Shown: positions 522 to 45,356, counted from the stretch's first letter. The stretch: 64,000 bases of DNA from Thermoanaerobaculia bacterium (GCA_036522835.1 DATDFB010000057.1:3906-67905), one strand, 5' to 3'. Program-made: numbers and translations. Notes: a model not told the origin generated them from the letters alone.

Positions 522-1829
522 ATGCGGGTACTCATCGTCGGGCAAGGCGCGCGCGAGCACGCGATCGCCTGGAAACTCAAGCAATCCCCTCTGGTCAAAG
601 AGCTTTACGCCGCCCCGGGGAACGCCGGCATCGCCCAGGTGGCGGACTGCGTCAACATCGGCGTGGCCGACATCATCGAGCTGGCGGACTTCGCCGAGGG
701 GCTGAAGATCGACCTCACGGTCGTCGGCCCCGAGCTCCCCCTCACCCTAGGCATCGTCGACGAGTTCCAAAAGCGCGGCCTGGCCTGCTTCGGCCCCACC
801 CGGCTCGCCTCCGAGCTCGAAGGCTCGAAGATCTTCTCCAAGGAATTCATGCGCAAGTATTCGATCCCGACCGCCGAGGCCGTCACCTGCGCCTCGATGG
901 ACGAGGCGAAGAGCGCGCTGAAAAAGATGGGCTATCCGGCCGTGCTGAAGGTCGACGGCCTCGCCGCCGGCAAGGGCGTGGTCATCGTCAAGAAGCCGTC
1001 CGACGCCGACGAGTTCCTGCACACGGTCTTCGGCGAGAAGAAGTTCGGCAACGCGGCCGACCGCATCCTCGTCGAGGAGTTTCTGACCGGCGACGAAGTC
1101 TCGTTCATGGCCATCACCGACGGAAAGCGCACCGTGCCCCTCGCCGCGGCAAAGGATTACAAGACCGCGCTCGACGGCGACCTCGGGCCGAACACCGGCG
1201 GCATGGGGGCGCACTCGCCCGCGGTCGTGTTGAGCGGCGACATGGCCGGCGAGGTGATGAAGACCATCATCCTGCCGACCGTGGCGGGCATGGCCACCGA
1301 GGGGCGGCCATACACCGGCGTGCTCTACGCGGGGCTGATGCTGACGCCGAACGGCCCGAAAGTGCTCGAGTACAACTGCCGCTTCGGCGATCCGGAGACG
1401 CAGGTGCAGATGCTGCGGCTCGAGGATGACCTCGCCGACGTCTGCCTCAAATCCGCCCGCGGCAACCTCGGGGACACGAAGCTGGCGTGGCGCAAGGAAG
1501 CGGCGGCGTGCGTCGTCATCGCCGTCGAGGGCTACCCCGACGAGTTCGCGAAGGGGCAGGAAGTGGCCATCGATCCGGTCGACGACGAGGCTGTCGTGAT
1601 CTTCCACGGAGGCACGATCCCGCGCGGCGGGAAGATGATCAACGTGGCCGGCCGCGTGGCCAGCGTCTGCGCCCGCGGCGCGACGCTCACGGAGGCGCTG
1701 GTCAAGGCCTATCAGAACGTGTCGAAGGTGCGATTCGAGGGAGCGCGCTACCGCCGCGACATCGGCTACCGCGCGCTCGAGAACCGCGCGCGCATCTACA
1801 GCGGTACGTTCCCGAGCGTGACGACGTGA
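522..1829 (+). CDS. purD: phosphoribosylamine--glycine ligase
   Basis: 435 aa, MRVLIVGQGAREHAIAWKL..., ATP-grasp, full-length PurD architecture. Confidence 0.93.
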   Translation: MRVLIVGQGAREHAIAWKLKQSPLVKELYAAPGNAGIAQVADCVNIGVADIIELADFAEGLKIDLTVVGPELPLTLGIVDEFQKRGLACFGPTRLASELEGSKIFSKEFMRKYSIPTAEAVTCASMDEAKSALKKMGYPAVLKVDGLAAGKGVVIVKKPSDADEFLHTVFGEKKFGNAADRILVEEFLTGDEVSFMAITDGKRTVPLAAAKDYKTALDGDLGPNTGGMGAHSPAVVLSGDMAGEVMKTIILPTVAGMATEGRPYTGVLYAGLMLTPNGPKVLEYNCRFGDPETQVQMLRLEDDLADVCLKSARGNLGDTKLAWRKEAAACVVIAVEGYPDEFAKGQEVAIDPVDDEAVVIFHGGTIPRGGKMINVAGRVASVCARGATLTEALVKAYQNVSKVRFEGARYRRDIGYRALENRARIYSGTFPSVTT

Positions 1830-2335
1830 CCGCGCCGTTCGTTTGCATCGTCATGGGCTCCGACTCCGACGCCGAGGTCATGGCGCAGGCGTGCGCGGCG
1901 CTCGACGAGCTGGGCGTCCAGTACGAGATGAAGGTGGCGTCGGCGCACCGTTCGCCGGAGCGGACGAAGCAGGTCATCGACGAGGCCGAGCGCGGCGGCG
2001 CGGCGGTCTTCATCGCCGGCGCCGGCATGGCCGCGCATCTGCCGGGCGTCGTGGCCAGCTTCACGACGAAGCCGGTCATCGGCGTGCCGCTCGCGGGAGG
2101 CGCGCTGCAGGGCTTCGACGCGCTGCTGGCGATCGTGCAGATGCCGCCGGGGATTCCGGTGGCGACGGTCGCGGTCGGCGGGGCGCGGAACGCGGGCGTG
2201 CTGGCGGCGCAGATCATGGCCGCGTCCGACGCGGCGCTGGCGGCGCGCTTGAAAGAACAGCGGGTCAAGATGGCCGAGGCGGTGGCGCAGAAGTCGAAGA
2301 AGGTGGAAAAGTCGACGCGTAGAGTGTCATCCTGA
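1826..2335 (+). CDS. purE: N5-carboxyaminoimidazole ribonucleotide mutase
   Basis: GTG at 1826 overlaps purD stop (GTGA); VTAPFVCIVMGSDSD...KPVIGVPL...GIPVATVAVG, ~169 aa class I PurE. Stop codon lies inside repeat element 2326-2403. Confidence 0.88.
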   Translation: MTAPFVCIVMGSDSDAEVMAQACAALDELGVQYEMKVASAHRSPERTKQVIDEAERGGAAVFIAGAGMAAHLPGVVASFTTKPVIGVPLAGGALQGFDALLAIVQMPPGIPVATVAVGGARNAGVLAAQIMAASDAALAARLKEQRVKMAEAVAQKSKKVEKSTRRVSS

Positions 2336-2403
2336 GTCGCGCAGACGGCGAAGGATCCCCTCGGCGGGGGGTTCCTCACCGTCTGCGCGGCTCGGAATGA
2401 CAC
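2326..2403. repeat. palindromic repeat element, family 2 (GTCATYCYGAG...CGGRATGACAC), copy A
   Basis: ~78-nt imperfect palindrome gtcatcctgagtcgcgcagacggcgaaggatcccc/ggggttcctcaccgtctgcgcggctcggaatgacac; related copies at 18403-18479, 45111-45213, half copy 37757-37787. Confidence 0.75.
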
Positions 2404-3308
2404 ACGCACCGCACGCGCATGCCGACCTATCGCGCAAGCTCCTCATCGCCACGATCGCCACGGCCGTCTTCGTCGTCGTCGAGCTGATCGCCGGCATCGC
2501 CGCCAACTCCCTCGCGCTCATCGGCGACGCCTTCCACAACTTCACCGACTCGCTCGCGCTGGTCCTTGCGCTCGTGGCCGTGCGCATCGAGCGGCGGCCG
2601 GCAAACGCCACCAAGACCTACGGGTATCACCGCGCCGGCGTGCTCGCCGCGTTCATCAACTCCGGGACGCTCGTCGCCTTCACGATCTACATCTTCTACG
2701 AAGCGTGGCACCGGCTGCGCGTGCCGCACGCCGTCGACAGCCGGGCCATGCTCGTCGTCGCCGCGGTCGCGTTCGCGCTCAACGCCGCCATCACCTGGTG
2801 GCTGCACGACGAAGGGCGCGAAGACCTCAACGTCCGCAGCGCCGTGCTGCACATGCTCGGCGATGCGGCGTCGTCGGTCGGCATCGTCATCGCCGCGCTG
2901 CTCATCGCCCGCACCGGCCGGCCGTTCTGGGACCCGGCCATGTCGGTCTTGATCGGCATCCTGATTTTGTGGAGCAGCTTCGGCGTGCTGCGCGAGGCGG
3001 TGAATCTGTTGCTCGAAGGGACGCCGCCGGGCATCGATCCCGGCGCGGTCACGCGCGCCATCGAGTCGGTCGAGGGCATTCTCGGCGTGCACCACCTGCA
3101 CATCTGGGGGCTCGGCTCCGCGCGGCGCGCGCTCTCCGCGCACCTCATCGTCGGCGACGTGCCGCTCGCGGCCACGAGCCAGCTCCTCGGCCGCGTGAAC
3201 GCGCTGCTGCACGACCAGTACGGCATCGAGCACACCACCATTCAGTTCGAGCTCGCCGATTGCCCCGAGGAGGATCCGTACTGCTTGCCTATTTCGCGGG
3301 AGTCGTGA
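2397..3308 (+). CDS. cation diffusion facilitator family transporter (CzcD-like)
   Basis: 303 aa; 6 TM N-domain with HxxxD (IGDAFHNFTD), C-terminal cytoplasmic domain; ATG embedded in right arm of repeat 2326-2403. Confidence 0.85.
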   Translation: MTHAPHAHADLSRKLLIATIATAVFVVVELIAGIAANSLALIGDAFHNFTDSLALVLALVAVRIERRPANATKTYGYHRAGVLAAFINSGTLVAFTIYIFYEAWHRLRVPHAVDSRAMLVVAAVAFALNAAITWWLHDEGREDLNVRSAVLHMLGDAASSVGIVIAALLIARTGRPFWDPAMSVLIGILILWSSFGVLREAVNLLLEGTPPGIDPGAVTRAIESVEGILGVHHLHIWGLGSARRALSAHLIVGDVPLAATSQLLGRVNALLHDQYGIEHTTIQFELADCPEEDPYCLPISRES

Positions 3309-36165: not shown

Positions 36166-37332
36166 GTGGAATTCGACATCTTCTTCTCGATCTGCCAGAC
36201 GGAGGTCGACGGGTATCTGCCCGACGAGCGAACGATGTTCGCGAATTTCTTCGAGCAGGTCGAGCTCGCCGACCGTCTCGGCTTCGGCACGGCGTGGGTG
36301 GCGGAGAGCCATCTTTCGACCGAGGTGCAGAAGACCAATCCCGGCGCGGTCATTCCGCACTTCGTCGGGGAGATCGGGCTCAACACCGACATCCTGCAGC
36401 TCGCGCACCGCGTCTTCGCGCGCACGAAGCGGATCGGCGTCGGCTCAGCGATCCTGAACATCCTCTGCAACGGCGGGCCGATTGCGCATGCGGAGCGGAT
36501 CAAGACGTTCCTGGCTTTGCACGGGCTCGACCCCGAGGAGCGGCGCACGCTGACGATCGGCTTCGCCTCGGGGCGCTTCCCGTTCATCAACGTGCCGTAC
36601 GGCGTCGTGCCGCGGAATCCGGTCGAGAGCGCGGCGTGGCCCGTGGTCAAGAACAAGATTTTCGAAGAGGCGACGGAGATTTTTCTCCGCCTGCTCAAAG
36701 GGGAGACGCTCAACTCGACGATGATCGCCCCGCGCGTGCTGCGGCGCGGCGACTTCCGCTCCGAGGAGGACTGGCAGCGCGTGCTCGAAGCGCACGGGCA
36801 GTACGTCGACGACGTGCCGCTCGCGCCACGCTGGACGTTCCCGAACCTGAAGATCGTTCCGCAGGAGTCGCGCATGGACCTCCTGCGACTCTCCATCGGG
36901 TCGCACGACCCGGCGCTGCAGGCGTTCGCGAACACGTTCCTGCCGGTCGGCGTCTTCAATCTCTCCATCACGCCGGGAAAAGAGATCGAGGAGACGAACC
37001 GTCGGATGCTGACGCAGTACCACGGCGGCGGATGGGAGCGGCGCCTCATGCCGCGCACGGTGCTCGTTTTTCCGAACGAGGCGGAGGCGACGACGGCGCT
37101 CTCGAACTACTGGCGCGCGCTGGAGGGGACGCTCGACGAGGAAAAGGTGCGCCGGGCCACGAACAACGCGCTCGTCGGCGACGCCGGGACGATCGCGCGG
37201 CAGATGCGGGAACGCTTCGATCCCGCGGACCGTTTGATGCTCTGGTTCGACTTCAACAACCACGACTCCAAGCGCGTGATGCAGAGCATGGACGACTTCA
37301 TGACCAAGGTGGCGCCGAGCTTCGCCGGATGA
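36166..37332 (+). CDS. LLM-class flavin-dependent oxidoreductase (luciferase-like)
   Basis: 388 aa TIM-barrel LLM family, FGTAWVAESHL. Confidence 0.8.
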   Translation: MEFDIFFSICQTEVDGYLPDERTMFANFFEQVELADRLGFGTAWVAESHLSTEVQKTNPGAVIPHFVGEIGLNTDILQLAHRVFARTKRIGVGSAILNILCNGGPIAHAERIKTFLALHGLDPEERRTLTIGFASGRFPFINVPYGVVPRNPVESAAWPVVKNKIFEEATEIFLRLLKGETLNSTMIAPRVLRRGDFRSEEDWQRVLEAHGQYVDDVPLAPRWTFPNLKIVPQESRMDLLRLSIGSHDPALQAFANTFLPVGVFNLSITPGKEIEETNRRMLTQYHGGGWERRLMPRTVLVFPNEAEATTALSNYWRALEGTLDEEKVRRATNNALVGDAGTIARQMRERFDPADRLMLWFDFNNHDSKRVMQSMDDFMTKVAPSFAG

Positions 37333-39167
37333 TCCGCCGCACGCTGCTGCTCTTCGCCGCCAATCTCGTGCTCTTCACGCTGCTGCGGGTGGCGTTTCTC
37401 CTGGTCTTCGGCCATCGCCTGGCCGGGAACGATCTTCTGCGCGCCTTTTACCTCGGATTGAAATTCGACGCGCGGCTGGCGGCGCTGGTCGTCGCGCCGA
37501 TCGCGATTTTCGGCACGCGCCGCGCGGCGACGATCGTCTTCGCAATCTTCGAGCTCATCGTCCTCCTCTGCTACGCCATCGACTTCGGCTCGTACGCGTA
37601 CGTCCACCAGCGCGTGAACGCCAGCGAGCTGGAGTTCCTCCGCAATCCGCTGATCTCGCTGCACATGGTGTGGGAGTCGTACCACGTCGTCTGGTTCGGG
37701 CTGGGCATCCTGCTGTTCCTCGCGGCGCTCGTGTTCGCGCTGCGCGGCGGCGACGTGTCATCCCGAGCGCAGCGAGGGATCCCCCGCGACCCGCTCTGGC
37801 AGCGCATCGCCCTCATCGTCTTTCTTCTGGCGTGCATCTACGGCAAGGCCTCGCGCTACCCGCTGCGCTGGAGCGACGCCTACGTCGCACGCGATCCCTT
37901 CGCCGCGGAGCTCGCGCTCAACCCGCCGCAGTTCCTCTTCGAGACGATGCGCGAGGAGCCGGTGAAGCTCGACGAGAACCGCGTGCGGCGGCTCTACCCG
38001 GTCATGGCCGCGTATGCCGGAGTCGATCGCCCCGATCCGAAATCGCTGTCGCTGGCGCGCACGCCGAGGCTCTTTCCGCAGACCACCGGGGCGCCCAACG
38101 TCGTCGTCATCCAGCTCGAGTCCTTCGCGGCGTTCAAGAGCGGCGCGTTCGGCAACCGCGCCAACGGCTGCCCGAACGTCGACCGCCTGGCGCGCGAGGG
38201 GCTGCTCTTCACGAACTACTACTCCCCCTCGGAGAAGACCGCGCGCGCGCTCTATGCCGCCGTCTTCGGCATGGCCGACGTGAGCCCGTGGCAGGCCGCC
38301 GGCAACAACCCCATGGCGGTCGACCAGTACACGATCATCAACGCCTTCCGCGGCTACGAGAAGTATTTCTTCCTCGGCGGGAGCGCGAACTGGTCGAACA
38401 TCCGCGGGATGCTCGCGCACAATATCGACGGACTGAAGATCTTCGAGGAAGGCTCGTACAAAGCGAAGCCGGTCGACGTCTGGGGCGTGACGGACGAAGA
38501 GGTGTTCCTCACGGCGAGCGACGAGCTCTCGAAACAGCGCAAGCCATTCTTCGCGCTGATCCTGACCTCCGGCAATCACCGCCCCTACACCGTGCCGAAG
38601 GAGACGCACGGCTACGCGCGCGAGATCCTGTCGAACGAAGACCTGCGCGCGAACGGCTTCGAGTCGAACGACGAGTACAACTCCTTCCGCTACCTCGACC
38701 ACGCCGTCGGCCTCTTTTTCGAGAAGGCCGAGAAGGAGCCGTGGTTCAAGAACACCGTCTTTGTTCTCTACGGCGACCACGGCACGCGCACCGGCGCGCC
38801 CGGCGAAGCGCTCACGCTCGGCGACCTCTCGCTCATCGTCTACCACGTGCCGATGATCATCTACGCGCCCGGCTTCAACGTGCCGCCGCGCAGGATCGAC
38901 ATCGCCGCGAGCCACATGGACCTGATGCCGACGATCGCGAGCTTTTGCGGAGTGCCGTACCGCAATCAGACGCTGGGCATCGATCTCTTCGATCCGAATT
39001 CCGCCGGACACTCGGCAGCGTTCGTTTTTACAACGTTTCGCCAGCCGCCCACCCTCGGCCTGGTCGAAGGCGCGCGCTACACGATCGTAAAATCGGGGAC
39101 GAGCAACACCCTTCCGGAAGCGTTTTATGAGTTTTCTCGTTGGCTGATGCTGCACAATAAACCGTAA
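37329..39167 (+). CDS. LTA-synthase/phosphoglycerol-transferase family sulfatase-like membrane protein
   Basis: ATGA-coupled; N-terminal 5 TM + extracytoplasmic alkaline-phosphatase-superfamily domain (VVVIQLESF...YGDHG). Confidence 0.78.
   Translation: MIRRTLLLFAANLVLFTLLRVAFLLVFGHRLAGNDLLRAFYLGLKFDARLAALVVAPIAIFGTRRAATIVFAIFELIVLLCYAIDFGSYAYVHQRVNASELEFLRNPLISLHMVWESYHVVWFGLGILLFLAALVFALRGGDVSSRAQRGIPRDPLWQRIALIVFLLACIYGKASRYPLRWSDAYVARDPFAAELALNPPQFLFETMREEPVKLDENRVRRLYPVMAAYAGVDRPDPKSLSLARTPRLFPQTTGAPNVVVIQLESFAAFKSGAFGNRANGCPNVDRLAREGLLFTNYYSPSEKTARALYAAVFGMADVSPWQAAGNNPMAVDQYTIINAFRGYEKYFFLGGSANWSNIRGMLAHNIDGLKIFEEGSYKAKPVDVWGVTDEEVFLTASDELSKQRKPFFALILTSGNHRPYTVPKETHGYAREILSNEDLRANGFESNDEYNSFRYLDHAVGLFFEKAEKEPWFKNTVFVLYGDHGTRTGAPGEALTLGDLSLIVYHVPMIIYAPGFNVPPRRIDIAASHMDLMPTIASFCGVPYRNQTLGIDLFDPNSAGHSAAFVFTTFRQPPTLGLVEGARYTIVKSGTSNTLPEAFYEFSRWLMLHNKP
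37757..37787. repeat. half copy of family 2 element inside LtaS-like CDS
   Basis: gtcatcccgagcgcagcgagggatccccc encodes VSSRAQRGIP in frame in a loop of the TM domain. Confidence 0.55.
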
Positions 39168-43092: not shown

Positions 43093-44355
43093 ATGGCCCT
43101 GATCGCCATCGGCCTCAACCACCGCACTGCCCCCGTGGACGTGCGCGAGCGGCTCAGCGTGGCCGAGTCGAAGCTGCCGGAGTTGATCGCGAGCCTCACG
43201 GCCATGAGCGGCGTCGACGGCGGCGCCATCGTCTCGACCTGCAACCGCGTCGAGACCTACGTCTCCGCCTCGAGCGAAGACATCATCGAAGCGGTCGTCG
43301 ACTGGCTCGCCGAGCGCGCCGGCGCCGACCGGGCCGAGATCGAGAAGCACCTCTACATCCTTCGCCACGGCGACGTGGTCAAGCACCTCTTCCGCGTGGC
43401 CGCGGGGCTCGACTCGATGATTGTCGGCGAGCCGCAGATCCACGGCCAGGTGCGCGCGGCGTTCCTGGAGTCGCAGCGCTGCGGCGCGCTCGACGCACTG
43501 CTGATGCACGTCTTCGAGCAGACCATGCGCGTGGCCAAGAAGATCCGCACCGACACCGGCATCGGCGAGCACGCCGTCTCCGTGCCGTACGCCGCGGTGG
43601 AGCTGGCGAAGAAGATCTTCGGCGAGCTCGACGGCCTGCAGGCGCTGCTCCTCGGCGCGGGCGACATCGGCGAGCTAACGGCGGAGCACCTCGCGGGCTC
43701 GGGTGTGCGCCAGATCTTCGTGGCCAACCGCGCCTACGAGCGCGGCGTGCAGCTCGCCGAGCGCTTCGGCGGCGCGGCCATCCAGTTCAGCGCTGTCGAG
43801 CCGTACCTGGCCACGTGCGACATCGTCATCGCCTCGACCGCAGCGCCGCACTTCGTCATCGAGCGCGGCCAGGTCGCGCGCGCGCTGGAGTCGCGGAAGA
43901 TGAAGAACCTCTTCCTCATCGACCTGAGCGTGCCGCGCAACATCGACCCGGCCATCGCCAAGGTCGAGGGCGCCTATCTCTACAACATCGACGACCTCCA
44001 GCTCGTGGCCGAGTCGAACCGCGAGCTGCGCATGAAGAAGGCCCAGCAGGCGGAGGAGATCGTGGCGCGCGAGGTGGAGTCGTTCCGCCGCCGCATCGCC
44101 GCCATGGACGCGGTGCCGACGATCGTCGAGCTGCAGCAGCGCCTCGAGGAGATCCGCGCCACGGAGCTGGAACGGTGCCTCCGCCGCGTCGGCCCGATCA
44201 CCGCCGAGCAGCGCGAGGCCATCGAGATGATGACCACGCAGATGGTCAACAAGATCCTCCACTACCCGATCCTCCAGCTCAAGGAAGCCGACGAGCCGCA
44301 GGAGCAGCGCGAGTCGCTCCGCAAGACGATTCGAAAGATCTTCGGGCTGCGATGA
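43093..44355 (+). CDS. hemA: glutamyl-tRNA reductase
   Basis: MALIAIGLNHRTAPVDVRERL ... CNRVE ... 420 aa. Confidence 0.92.
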   Translation: MALIAIGLNHRTAPVDVRERLSVAESKLPELIASLTAMSGVDGGAIVSTCNRVETYVSASSEDIIEAVVDWLAERAGADRAEIEKHLYILRHGDVVKHLFRVAAGLDSMIVGEPQIHGQVRAAFLESQRCGALDALLMHVFEQTMRVAKKIRTDTGIGEHAVSVPYAAVELAKKIFGELDGLQALLLGAGDIGELTAEHLAGSGVRQIFVANRAYERGVQLAERFGGAAIQFSAVEPYLATCDIVIASTAAPHFVIERGQVARALESRKMKNLFLIDLSVPRNIDPAIAKVEGAYLYNIDDLQLVAESNRELRMKKAQQAEEIVAREVESFRRRIAAMDAVPTIVELQQRLEEIRATELERCLRRVGPITAEQREAIEMMTTQMVNKILHYPILQLKEADEPQEQRESLRKTIRKIFGLR

Positions 44356-45356
44356 GCGAGACAATCCGCATCGGCACGCGCGGCAGCCAACTCGCGCTCT
44401 GGCAAGCCAACGAAGTGTCGAACCGGCTCAGCGAAATCGGCTACCGGCCGGAGATCGCGGTCATCAAGACGACGGGCGACAAGCGCACCGACGTGCCGCT
44501 GTCGTCGGTCGGCGGCAAGGGCCTCTTCATCAAGGAGCTCGAGGAGGCGCTGGCGCGGCGCGAGATCGATGTGGCCGTGCACTCGCTCAAGGACGTGCCG
44601 TCGCTCGTCCCCGAGCCGTTCGTGCTGGCCGGCTTCCTCGAGCGCGCCGACGCCCGCGACGCCTGGGTGCAGCTCGACGGCACGCGCATCGAGGAGCTGG
44701 CTGCAGGCGCGGTCGTCGGCACGAGCGCGCCGCGGCGGCGCGCGCAACTGCGGCTGCTCTTTCCGTCGCTCACGCTCGAGGAGATGCGCGGCAACGTCGA
44801 CACGCGCATCAATAAACTGCGCGCCGGCTTGTACGACGGCGCGGTGCTGGCGTCGGCCGGACTCATTCGACTCGGCCGTTCCAGCGAGATCACCGCGCAG
44901 TTCGACGTCGACCAGATGGTGCCGGCCGCGGGGCAGGGCATCGTCACGATCGAGTGCAACAAAGACGACGATCGCGCGCGCCAGGCCGCCGCGGCGATCA
45001 ACCACCATCCCAGCGAGGCCGCGGCGCGCGCCGAGCGCGGCGTGCTGCAGAAGTTCGGCGAGGCGCTCGACTGCTACTCCGCCGTGGCCGTGCATGCGAC
45101 GTGGGCCCGTGTCATTCCGCGTCGCGAAGACGGCGAGGAGTCCCGTGCACACGACGACGGCGATGCTCCGTCGGCAGGAGATCCTTCGCCGTCTTCGCGG
45201 CTCGGGATGACACGTCTCAAGATCCGCGCGTTCTTCGGCGAGCTCGAAGGCGAGCGCCATTTGCACGTCACGCGCGAAGGCGACGAGGCCGACGCCGTCG
45301 TGCAGCAAGTCTTCGACGAGCTCGTCGACCGCGGAGCCATGGAGCTGCTCAAGTGA
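44352..45356 (+). CDS. hemC: hydroxymethylbilane synthase (porphobilinogen deaminase), with in-frame repeat insertion
   Basis: IRIGTRGSQLALWQA; 334 aa, ~35 aa longer than typical HemC because of insertion 45111-45213; ATGA-coupled to hemA. Confidence 0.9.
   Translation: MSETIRIGTRGSQLALWQANEVSNRLSEIGYRPEIAVIKTTGDKRTDVPLSSVGGKGLFIKELEEALARREIDVAVHSLKDVPSLVPEPFVLAGFLERADARDAWVQLDGTRIEELAAGAVVGTSAPRRRAQLRLLFPSLTLEEMRGNVDTRINKLRAGLYDGAVLASAGLIRLGRSSEITAQFDVDQMVPAAGQGIVTIECNKDDDRARQAAAAINHHPSEAAARAERGVLQKFGEALDCYSAVAVHATWARVIPRREDGEESRAHDDGDAPSAGDPSPSSRLGMTRLKIRAFFGELEGERHLHVTREGDEADAVVQQVFDELVDRGAMELLK
45111..45213. repeat. family 2 palindromic element, copy C, in frame inside hemC
   Basis: gtcattccgcgtcgcgaagacggcgaggagtccc...ggagatccttcgccgtcttcgcggctcgggatgacac encodes VIPRREDGEESRAHDDGDAPSAGDPSPSSRLGMT. 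Confidence 0.8.

Follow-up and report, generated by a model that had tools for sequence, protein, structure and literature searches.

Repetitive extragenic palindromic elements (REPs) that carry an unpaired CGTC tag, or its variants TGTC and CCTC, have been united in the CGTC superfamily (Di Nocera, De Gregorio and Rocco, 2013, BMC Genomics 14:522; PMC3733652). Units of this superfamily form a stem of 8-9 bp with a loop of 4-5 nt and a short unpaired 3' tail of consensus CCA, are arranged mostly as head-to-head dimers with variable spacers, include intragenic copies, occur in several phyla and have no known transposase (PMC3733652). The present analysis concerns a TGTC-tagged repeat in a 64,000-nt stretch of DNA from a Thermoanaerobaculia bacterium (GCA_036522835.1, DATDFB010000057.1:3906-67905; hereafter the window, with positions counted from its first letter), one copy of which (copy A) lies between purE and a downstream czcD-like gene for a cation diffusion facilitator (CDF) transporter. 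Copy A is a REP-type hairpin doublet, dispersed among genomes and polymorphic among relatives, that now holds both the stop codon of purE and the start codon of the CDF gene.

In the coat-replicase system of phage MS2, translation is coupled through an RNA structure that occludes the downstream start codon. Rickettsia palindromic elements (RPEs), reportedly described by Ogata and colleagues in 2000, are said to be palindromic repeats that lie in frame in housekeeping genes and are tolerated in surface loops, and Newbury and colleagues reportedly documented in 1987 effects of E. coli REPs and bacterial interspersed mosaic elements (BIMEs) on expression. The RPEs have been summarised elsewhere (PMC10969869), and two of them, RPE-4 and RPE-6, are themselves CGTC REPs (PMC3733652). 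REP doublets known as REPINs are mobilised by REP-associated tyrosine transposases (RAYTs; Bertels and Rainey, 2011; PMC3116915, PMC3337134), and REPs situated no more than 15 nt from a stop codon lower translation (Liang, Rudd and Deutscher, 2015, as cited in PMC12306157).

The features of the purE-CDF junction are as follows; L and P numbers, here and below, are our handles for loci and proteins.

1826 to 2335, plus strand: purE, 5-aminoimidazole ribonucleotide (AIR) carboxylase / N5-carboxyaminoimidazole ribonucleotide (N5-CAIR) mutase family, 169 aa; gene call on L001 and L002, Pfam AIRC 3.8e-60, C-terminal comparison with 60 relatives
2324 to 2403, no strand: copy A, head-to-head (inverted) dimer of two long-type TGTC-tagged arms; left arm about 2324-2358, spacer about 2359-2369, right arm about 2370-2403
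2333 to 2335, plus strand: purE stop codon TGA, within the conserved left terminus GTGTCATCCTGAG
2397 to 2399, plus strand: start codon ATG of the czcD-like CDF gene, within the conserved right terminus CTCGGAATGACAC (cggaATGacac); the only in-frame start, with the same start called in L007
2397 to 3308, plus strand: CDF cation-efflux gene, 303 aa; Pfam Cation_efflux and ZT_dimer, under purifying selection

An inverted-repeat search returns copy A as a near-perfect hairpin of 80 nt (2324-2403), in which arms of 37 nt (2324-2360 and 2367-2403; 81% complementary) enclose a centre of 6 nt, and both of its arms are matched by nhmmer (E 4e-11 and 3e-08). The sequence across the junction reads ...ACG CGT AGA GTG TCA TCC TGA GTCGCGCAGACGGCGAAGGATCCCC TCGGCG GGGGGTTCCTCACCGTCTGCGCGGCTCGGA ATG ACA CAC GCA..., with the last three sense codons and the stop codon of purE (GTG TCA TCC TGA, 2324-2335) derived from the element. 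An earlier note on this DNA had proposed that the palindrome donates the purE stop in its left end and the CDF start in its right end, which proves correct, with the left boundary at 2324 rather than 2326. As RNA, copy A folds into one hairpin of -63.1 kcal/mol (z = -9.6; 0 of 200 shuffles equally stable), in whose stem the ATG at 2397-2399 pairs with the CAT at 2328-2330, three bases outside the TGA; the bases past the stem are acacgcaccgc.

The purE frame ending at 2333-2335 is supported by the frame plot of G+C content at third codon positions (GC3) and by homology. For the CDF gene, the ATG at 2397-2399 is the first ATG, GTG or TTG past the upstream in-frame stop, no alternative in-frame start follows up to +90 nt, and no Shine-Dalgarno sequence was found upstream of it. 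The ratio of nonsynonymous to synonymous substitution rates (dN/dS) of CDF against five relatives is 0.19-0.25, and since it lies near 0.2 in every comparison, CDF is taken to be a working gene whose sole start codon is repeat-derived. The same junction is found, identical, on two independent metagenome contigs (L001 and L002), with purD at 522-1829, purE at 1826-2335 and CDF at 2397-3308. A scan of positions 1700-2900 returned 0 terminator-like or promoter-like sites, and neither strand carries a U-tract or T-run after the hairpin. Rfam, searched with the whole window at gathering thresholds, returned no family; searched with the element at E up to 10, it returned mostly miRNA precursors, scoring 13-38 bits against gathering thresholds of 47-268. 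Upstream of the element, purD and purE overlap by 4 nt (1826-1829), so that a tight type of junction persists on this side and is disrupted on the other.

Sixty PurE relatives mostly end in ...KSKKVE[RK]STR*, to which the window protein adds RVSS*; the VSS* is the GTG TCA TCC TGA of the element, and the AGA codon before it (2321-2323) is likewise missing from most relatives. The purD-purE-CDF synteny is conserved among relatives, and the junction could be compared in several that lack the element, as the earlier note had proposed. In the nearest of the relatives listed, L127 (96% PurE identity), CDF starts with GTG and shares 20 nt with the end of purE; L003 is also without the element and also has a 20-nt overlap; and in L128, again without it, the two genes abut as TAG/GTG. 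Gene ends thus differ where the element is missing, and no case was seen of an absent element with unchanged gene ends. Because the element-free relatives have such tight junctions, abutting or overlapping, the insertion can be said to have remodelled the gene ends, and the donation of codons is real.

Among relatives that do carry the element, L007 has it with the same spacing; its purE ends in STRPVSS* on the TGA of the element, and the called CDF start is the ATG of the element. In L129, an independent insertion directly after STR has produced STRVSS*, and CDF there uses an ATG of its own, 8 nt past the element. Endings of the VSS* type recur in L007, L129 and 7 further loci. A different, unrelated palindromic repeat occupies the purE-CDF junction of L005 (10502-10625; gagccctcgccccgcttgcggggagagggtg...cccctcatccgg...ccttctccccgcaggcggggcgaagg), and because of it this junction can be said to gather unrelated repeats.

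The repeat belongs to a large family, which was delimited by scanning 596 Gb of sequence, one genome per species, for the pattern GTGTCATYCYGAG-N45-75-CTCRGRATGACAC with a free centre. The end-to-end pattern was matched in at least 119 genome stretches, against about 0.07-0.13 expected by chance, and the element architecture is present at unrelated loci in at least 12 phyla, across which the 13-nt ends are conserved. Hosts among the matches listed include Acidobacteriota (Thermoanaerobaculia and Terriglobia), Chloroflexota, Gemmatimonadales, Nitrospiraceae, Binatia and Desulfatirhabdium, as well as Alpha-, Beta- and Gammaproteobacteria, Bacteroidota, Clostridia, Chthoniobacter and one Peribacterales genome of the candidate phyla radiation (CPR). 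A full-text literature search with the core sequence of the repeat returned unrelated primers only.

Each arm is a hairpin of 27-35 nt with the architecture (G)TGTC / ATYCY / GA / helix-loop-helix / GA / RGRAT / C, that is, a TGTC tag, a 5-bp stem ATYCY/RGRAT, tandem G.A/A.G pairs and a variable inner helix; two inverted units and a variable spacer give a palindrome of 70-105 nt. In short arms, 5 bp, the G.A/A.G pairs and 2 bp (9 stacked positions) are closed by a 3-nt loop; the corresponding figures for long arms are 5 + 2 + 4 and a loop of 6 nt. GCGNAGC, a motif known to form a very stable DNA mini-hairpin, is found in the short arms. Of 148 distinct arms, 141 are complementary at both Y/R position pairs, with all four combinations in use. 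For 41 long arms, pairing holds in 93.5% of cells, as against 26-44% in slid controls; both partners have changed in 5 of 9 pairs, and the covariation score observed is reached by 0 of 500 shuffles. The start of the stem, by comparison, is nearly fixed, columns 6/33 being A-U in 30 of these 41 arms and columns 7/32 U-A in all 41, such that AT...AT flanks the covarying Y and R positions. Arms of differing subtype are joined within one element in copy B of the window (described below) and in L013, and because such mixed elements and single arms exist, the arm is considered the unit and the palindrome an inverted doublet.

When arms were anchored on the inner motif only, TGTC preceded 236 of 245 (216 GTGTC, 11 TTGTC, 7 CTGTC and 2 ATGTC) and CGTC preceded 7, in a set most of which came from a scan that demanded GTGTC; the bases after the arm are C and then T or C (CT in 152 and CC in 87 of the 245). 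The idea that the GTG and CAC tips are the halves of a split GTGCAC target was rejected, since TGTC remains with the arms when only the inner motif serves as anchor, and since the reading frames are incompatible with it. The ends of the element are sharp, with flanks beyond the tag unconserved, and no shared target motif was found among empty sites. In 124 copies, target-site duplication showed no excess over permuted flanks, either adjacent or offset. In about 10 of these 124 copies the inverted symmetry runs 4-12 nt into the flanks (about 0.5 expected), as in L017 (1640-1760), L023 (435-560), L035 (3753-3851) and L040 (3707-3825); it looks as if the element there had entered the centre of a pre-existing hairpin.

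These properties place the repeat among the REPs, because its tag, A-T stem start, dimer organisation and intragenic occurrence match, while the interrupted stem and the host range differ. Like members of the CGTC superfamily, it has a TGTC tag, a stem that opens with complementary A-T and T-A, mostly head-to-head dimers with variable spacers, copies near or overlapping the ends of open reading frames (ORFs), in-frame intragenic copies, no associated transposase in a crude motif scan and a distribution over multiple phyla. Its arms are similar in dimensions to the CGTC units but are interrupted by tandem G.A/A.G pairs and carry a second helix, whereas the CGTC stem is a plain 8-9 bp, and Acidobacteriota, Chloroflexota, Firmicutes and others lie outside the reported CGTC hosts (PMC3733652). 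The supplements of that study contain no string matching the element consensus by which it might be assigned to CGTC-1 to CGTC-4. The TGTC element may be a new family of the CGTC/TGTC-tagged superfamily. Donation of a stop codon has been described for GTAG REPs, which supply TAG (PMC3733652); the present element supplies TGA, from its TCATCCTGA end, and a start codon in addition.

The resemblance to REPINs is also close, in that two inverted REP hairpins with a short spacer make up a larger hairpin, are non-autonomous, leave no target duplication, reach many copies per genome and persist as singlets that are remnants. In contrast to REPINs, the tag here is (G)TGTC rather than GTAG, no RAYT was found (in a crude motif scan), and the TGTC ends are conserved across phyla, while REPIN populations are described as lineage-specific and vertically inherited. 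The likeness to RPEs is one of behaviour, namely in-frame insertion at tolerant sites of conserved proteins (hemC and a sulfatase-family loop, below), though RPEs belong to obligate intracellular hosts and the present bacterium is an Acidobacteriota-like, free-living soil organism, and RPE-1 is longer (about 150 bp). As with E. coli REPs and BIMEs, a stable intercistronic hairpin lies at or within 15 nt of a stop codon, and protection of the upstream mRNA and slowing of terminating ribosomes would be expected; the difference is that here the stop is inside the stem and the start of the next gene is in the opposite strand of the same stem. The arrangement is also similar to MS2-type coupling, where a downstream start is sequestered by upstream coding sequence and opened by translating ribosomes, except that the occluding structure here would have come ready-made from a mobile repeat and that the coupling is predicted from folding.

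The ends of genes were surveyed across the family at 208 element ends from high-GC loci (L008-L126). At 15 of these ends a clearly coding ORF runs into the element, in 12 cases in the GTG frame (p = 3e-4 against one third); 9 of the ORFs stop at the TGA of GTG TCA TCC TGA and 3 more at a TAG five codons into the element. Because ORFs enter elements in the GTG frame and mostly end in V-S-S, many protein C-termini in these genomes are repeat-encoded. Use of ATGACAC as a start codon is unambiguous only in the window and L007. Stop donation is a recurrent property of the family, and start donation is rare. In L034 (1838-1922), a dimer exactly fills the gap between two co-oriented GT4-like glycosyltransferase genes, with the upstream stop in its left end and the downstream start either at the ATG of the element or at a GTG 9 nt later.

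We put a probability of roughly 75% on the reading that copy A is a head-to-head dimer of a TGTC-tagged REP-type hairpin repeat, a non-autonomous, REPIN-like selfish DNA that now carries both codons of the junction. The element would have inserted into a formerly overlapping or abutting purE-CDF junction, having spread by a route without duplication, probably by way of single-stranded DNA (HUH/tyrosine-transposase-like), to which the lack of target duplication and the DNA-hairpin-like arms both point. Only insertions that kept both flanking genes translatable would have survived, which would favour the frame that closes the upstream ORF three codons into the element. Folding calculations put the probability that the ATG is unpaired at 0.04 in free mRNA, rising to about 0.5 once a ribosome occupies the purE stop. 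Ribosomes terminating purE would unwind the stem and expose the CDF start, an arrangement that would replace the ancestral coupling by overlap. Since the ATG sits in a -63 kcal/mol stem facing the last codons of purE and lacks a Shine-Dalgarno sequence, CDF translation is predicted to be coupled to purE termination and most likely requires that ribosomes complete purE. As the example of E. coli REPs would suggest, the hairpin may in addition dampen termination or output of purE or make the upstream mRNA more stable, and effects on mRNA stability or processing are possible as a by-product.

Several observations weigh against this reading. The element at junction A tracks no PurD/CDF similarity tree: the identity order is ((window, L127, L003, L005), L128, L007), L129, and the element is in the window and the more distant L007 and not in L127, L003 or L128. 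Such patchiness implies that the element was lost several times, entered the same point several times or was exchanged by recombination. The window and L007 copies may stem from a single event; the two share the same spacing and arm types, and the window spacer equals the L007 spacer minus 24 nt, but similar spacers at other loci and the patchy tree run counter to it. A crude scan of about 1 Mb of loci for HUH...Y motifs, uninformative as a negative, returned neither a transposase nor a RAYT, so that the route of mobilisation is a candidate one. The step of translational coupling comes from thermodynamic folding, and the ribosome-occupied model leaves the ATG just about 50% accessible. Finally, the frame bias of 12 in 15 may count orthologous loci twice (window and L007).

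Other explanations fit these data less comfortably. The earlier note had suggested that the elements serve as intercistronic structured spacers, and a selected RNA module of this kind, acting as an RNase processing site or a barrier to 3'-exonucleases and giving differential expression of the cistrons, is an unlikely account of the junction. Copies A and B do sit exactly between co-oriented genes as very stable RNA hairpins whose arms show compensatory changes, and REPs and Correia or enterobacterial repetitive intergenic consensus (ERIC) elements alter mRNA decay or are cut by RNase III or RNase E (PMC3733652, PMC10969869). However, two of the four loci of the window are inside coding sequence, the same repeat lying in frame in hemC and in a membrane sulfatase-family gene; the closest relatives have no element at either junction and a direct overlap instead; another relative (L005) has an unrelated repeat at the same junction; and the symmetric palindrome occurs at unrelated loci in at least 12 phyla, with no U-tract and no Rfam family at copy A. 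The covariation, moreover, concerns individual arms, and a DNA hairpin explains it equally well. A dedicated processing or stability spacer is consequently not supported as the reason for the presence of the element. We regard as highly improbable an intrinsic terminator or attenuator that closes the purD-purE transcript and leaves CDF separately transcribed or silent: a strong GC-rich hairpin directly after a gene end is what such a model asks for, yet no T-run is present on either strand, the scan of 1700-2900 is empty of terminator- and promoter-like sites, the CDF start codon is within the hairpin and CDF is under purifying selection.

A classical miniature inverted-repeat transposable element (MITE), derived by deletion from an insertion sequence (IS) with a DDE transposase and mobilised in trans via terminal inverted repeats, would account for a palindrome of 70-105 bp with conserved inverted ends and a variable centre and for its presence/absence polymorphism. 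It would not account for the lack of target-site duplication at any offset in the 124 copies, for the compensatory changes that mark each arm as a hairpin, for a lone arm (copy C) or for the mixing of arm subtypes within one element, and no IS bearing GTGTCATYCYGAG-type ends was met in about 1 Mb of loci; we give this origin very little weight. It is just as hard to credit as the terminator model that the junction is an illusion of annotation, with the true CDF start or purE stop elsewhere or with CDF decaying. The missing Shine-Dalgarno sequence at ATG 2397 would agree with such an error, as would the frequent mis-annotation of REP-containing N-termini (PMC3733652). Against this, there is no other in-frame ATG, GTG or TTG between the upstream stop (2253 frame) and +90 nt, a later start would cut into the Pfam domain, which begins at residue 15, dN/dS is about 0.2, the purE frame is unambiguous by GC3 and homology, and two independent assemblies have the identical junction.

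With a selfish hairpin repeat as the preferred explanation, both ends of the purE-CDF junction have been rewritten, an overlapping stop and start giving way to a repeat-encoded stop and start, with the downstream gene still under selection. The locus shows DNA of the REP type remodelling operon junctions and protein loops in soil Acidobacteriota, and extends the reach of the CGTC/TGTC-tagged REP superfamily to many more phyla. For annotators it holds a warning that short tails of the form ...VSS* and N-termini beginning MT... in these genomes are repeat-derived. Donation of a stop together with a start, with conversion of an overlap into a hairpin, is a well-documented illustration and not a new principle or regulatory device. 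Target choice and selection become testable through the biased frame at gene ends and the recurrence of independent hits on the same sites. A bolder proposal, to which we attach only a small chance, is that dimers of TGTC-tagged REPs are portable stop-hairpin-start cassettes (GTG TCA TCC TGA ... ATG ACA C), more than mere passengers, in which, on the splitting of overlapping operon genes, an upstream stop facing a downstream start in one stem preserves or tunes coupling; the conserved 13-nt ends and the repeated sites would then point to a widely shared inserting enzyme with a preference for site or structure.

The window contains seven arms at four loci (A dimer, B dimer, C single arm and D dimer), three of the four being inverted dimers with the tags facing outward. 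The features at the loci other than A are these.

18401 to 18479, no strand: copy B, hetero-dimer of a long-type arm (18401-18435) and a short-type arm (18453-18479); inverted repeat, fold, nhmmer
18392 to 18396, minus strand: ATGAC with the cyclase start codon; the ancestral ATGA(C) junction is now present as two direct copies, of which this is one, to judge by comparison with L132-L134, L137 and L138
18484 to 18488, minus strand: ATGAC in which the LigB+RidA gene has its TGA stop; the other copy of that junction
37755 to 37783, plus strand: copy C, single short-type arm in frame in a lipoteichoic acid (LTA)-synthase/sulfatase-family gene (37329-39167); nhmmer E 7e-09
45109 to 45213, plus strand: copy D, 105-nt dimer, 35 codons, in frame in hemC (hydroxymethylbilane synthase, 44352-45356)

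Copy B lies between two minus-strand genes, of which the flanking Pfam domains are Cyclase and LigB+Ribonuc_L-PSP, and takes up 79 of the 88 intergenic bases between the stop of the LigB+RidA gene (18485-18487) and the ATG of the cyclase gene (18396-18394). The earlier note had likened it to copy A; as a filler between co-oriented genes the comparison stands, but copy B supplies neither codon, as ATGAC is present on both sides of the insert and each gene retains its own signal. In the five closest element-free relatives (cyclase 94-74% identical), the upstream stop and the cyclase start overlap as ATGA. Because target-site duplication is not in excess across the family, the ATGAC duplication is treated as specific to this locus. 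Between the RidA-domain gene and the cyclase gene of L136 (about 355-392) lies gtATGACACgcgcATGAGC, which equals the terminal heptamer of the repeat plus a gcgc spacer, the same spacer as that after the element(s) in L135 (1-153); to judge from the sequence, it may be a footprint left by deletion of an L135-type insert.

Copies C and D are inside proteins. Copy C encodes VSSRAQRGIP in a loop between membrane segments, where KRDAVTAK of relatives has become GDVSSRAQRGIP; the same loop holds a full dimer in P0256 (84% identical) and no element in relatives that are 94-95% identical. Copy D adds 35 residues (RVIPRREDGEESRAHDDGDAPSAGDPSPSSRLGMT) to HemC, which at 334 aa is identical to the protein of an NCBI Thermoanaerobaculia metagenome-assembled genome (MAG), whereas about 25 of its closest relatives have 300 aa and are without the 35 residues; DNA of the empty site is available in L130, from the same assembly as the empty junction A of L128. 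The HemC structure model shows the insert as a coil of low confidence that forms the tip of a beta-hairpin, between strands 244-254 and 286-296. Independent inserts of the TGTC repeat are found in the same beta-hairpin loop in more distant lineages (P0150, P0151, P0154, P0222 and L131) and at the C-terminus in P0201. The same sites, namely the purE-CDF junction, one hemC loop and one sulfatase loop, have thus been struck repeatedly, while the closest relatives are empty there. In hemC of L131 (1335-1535), a duplicated hemC coding segment of about 60 nt (second copy of ...RKFGAPLDLYSGAGVNA) lies between a partial arm and a full dimer, a pattern that suggests a local, repeat-associated rearrangement within an intact ORF.

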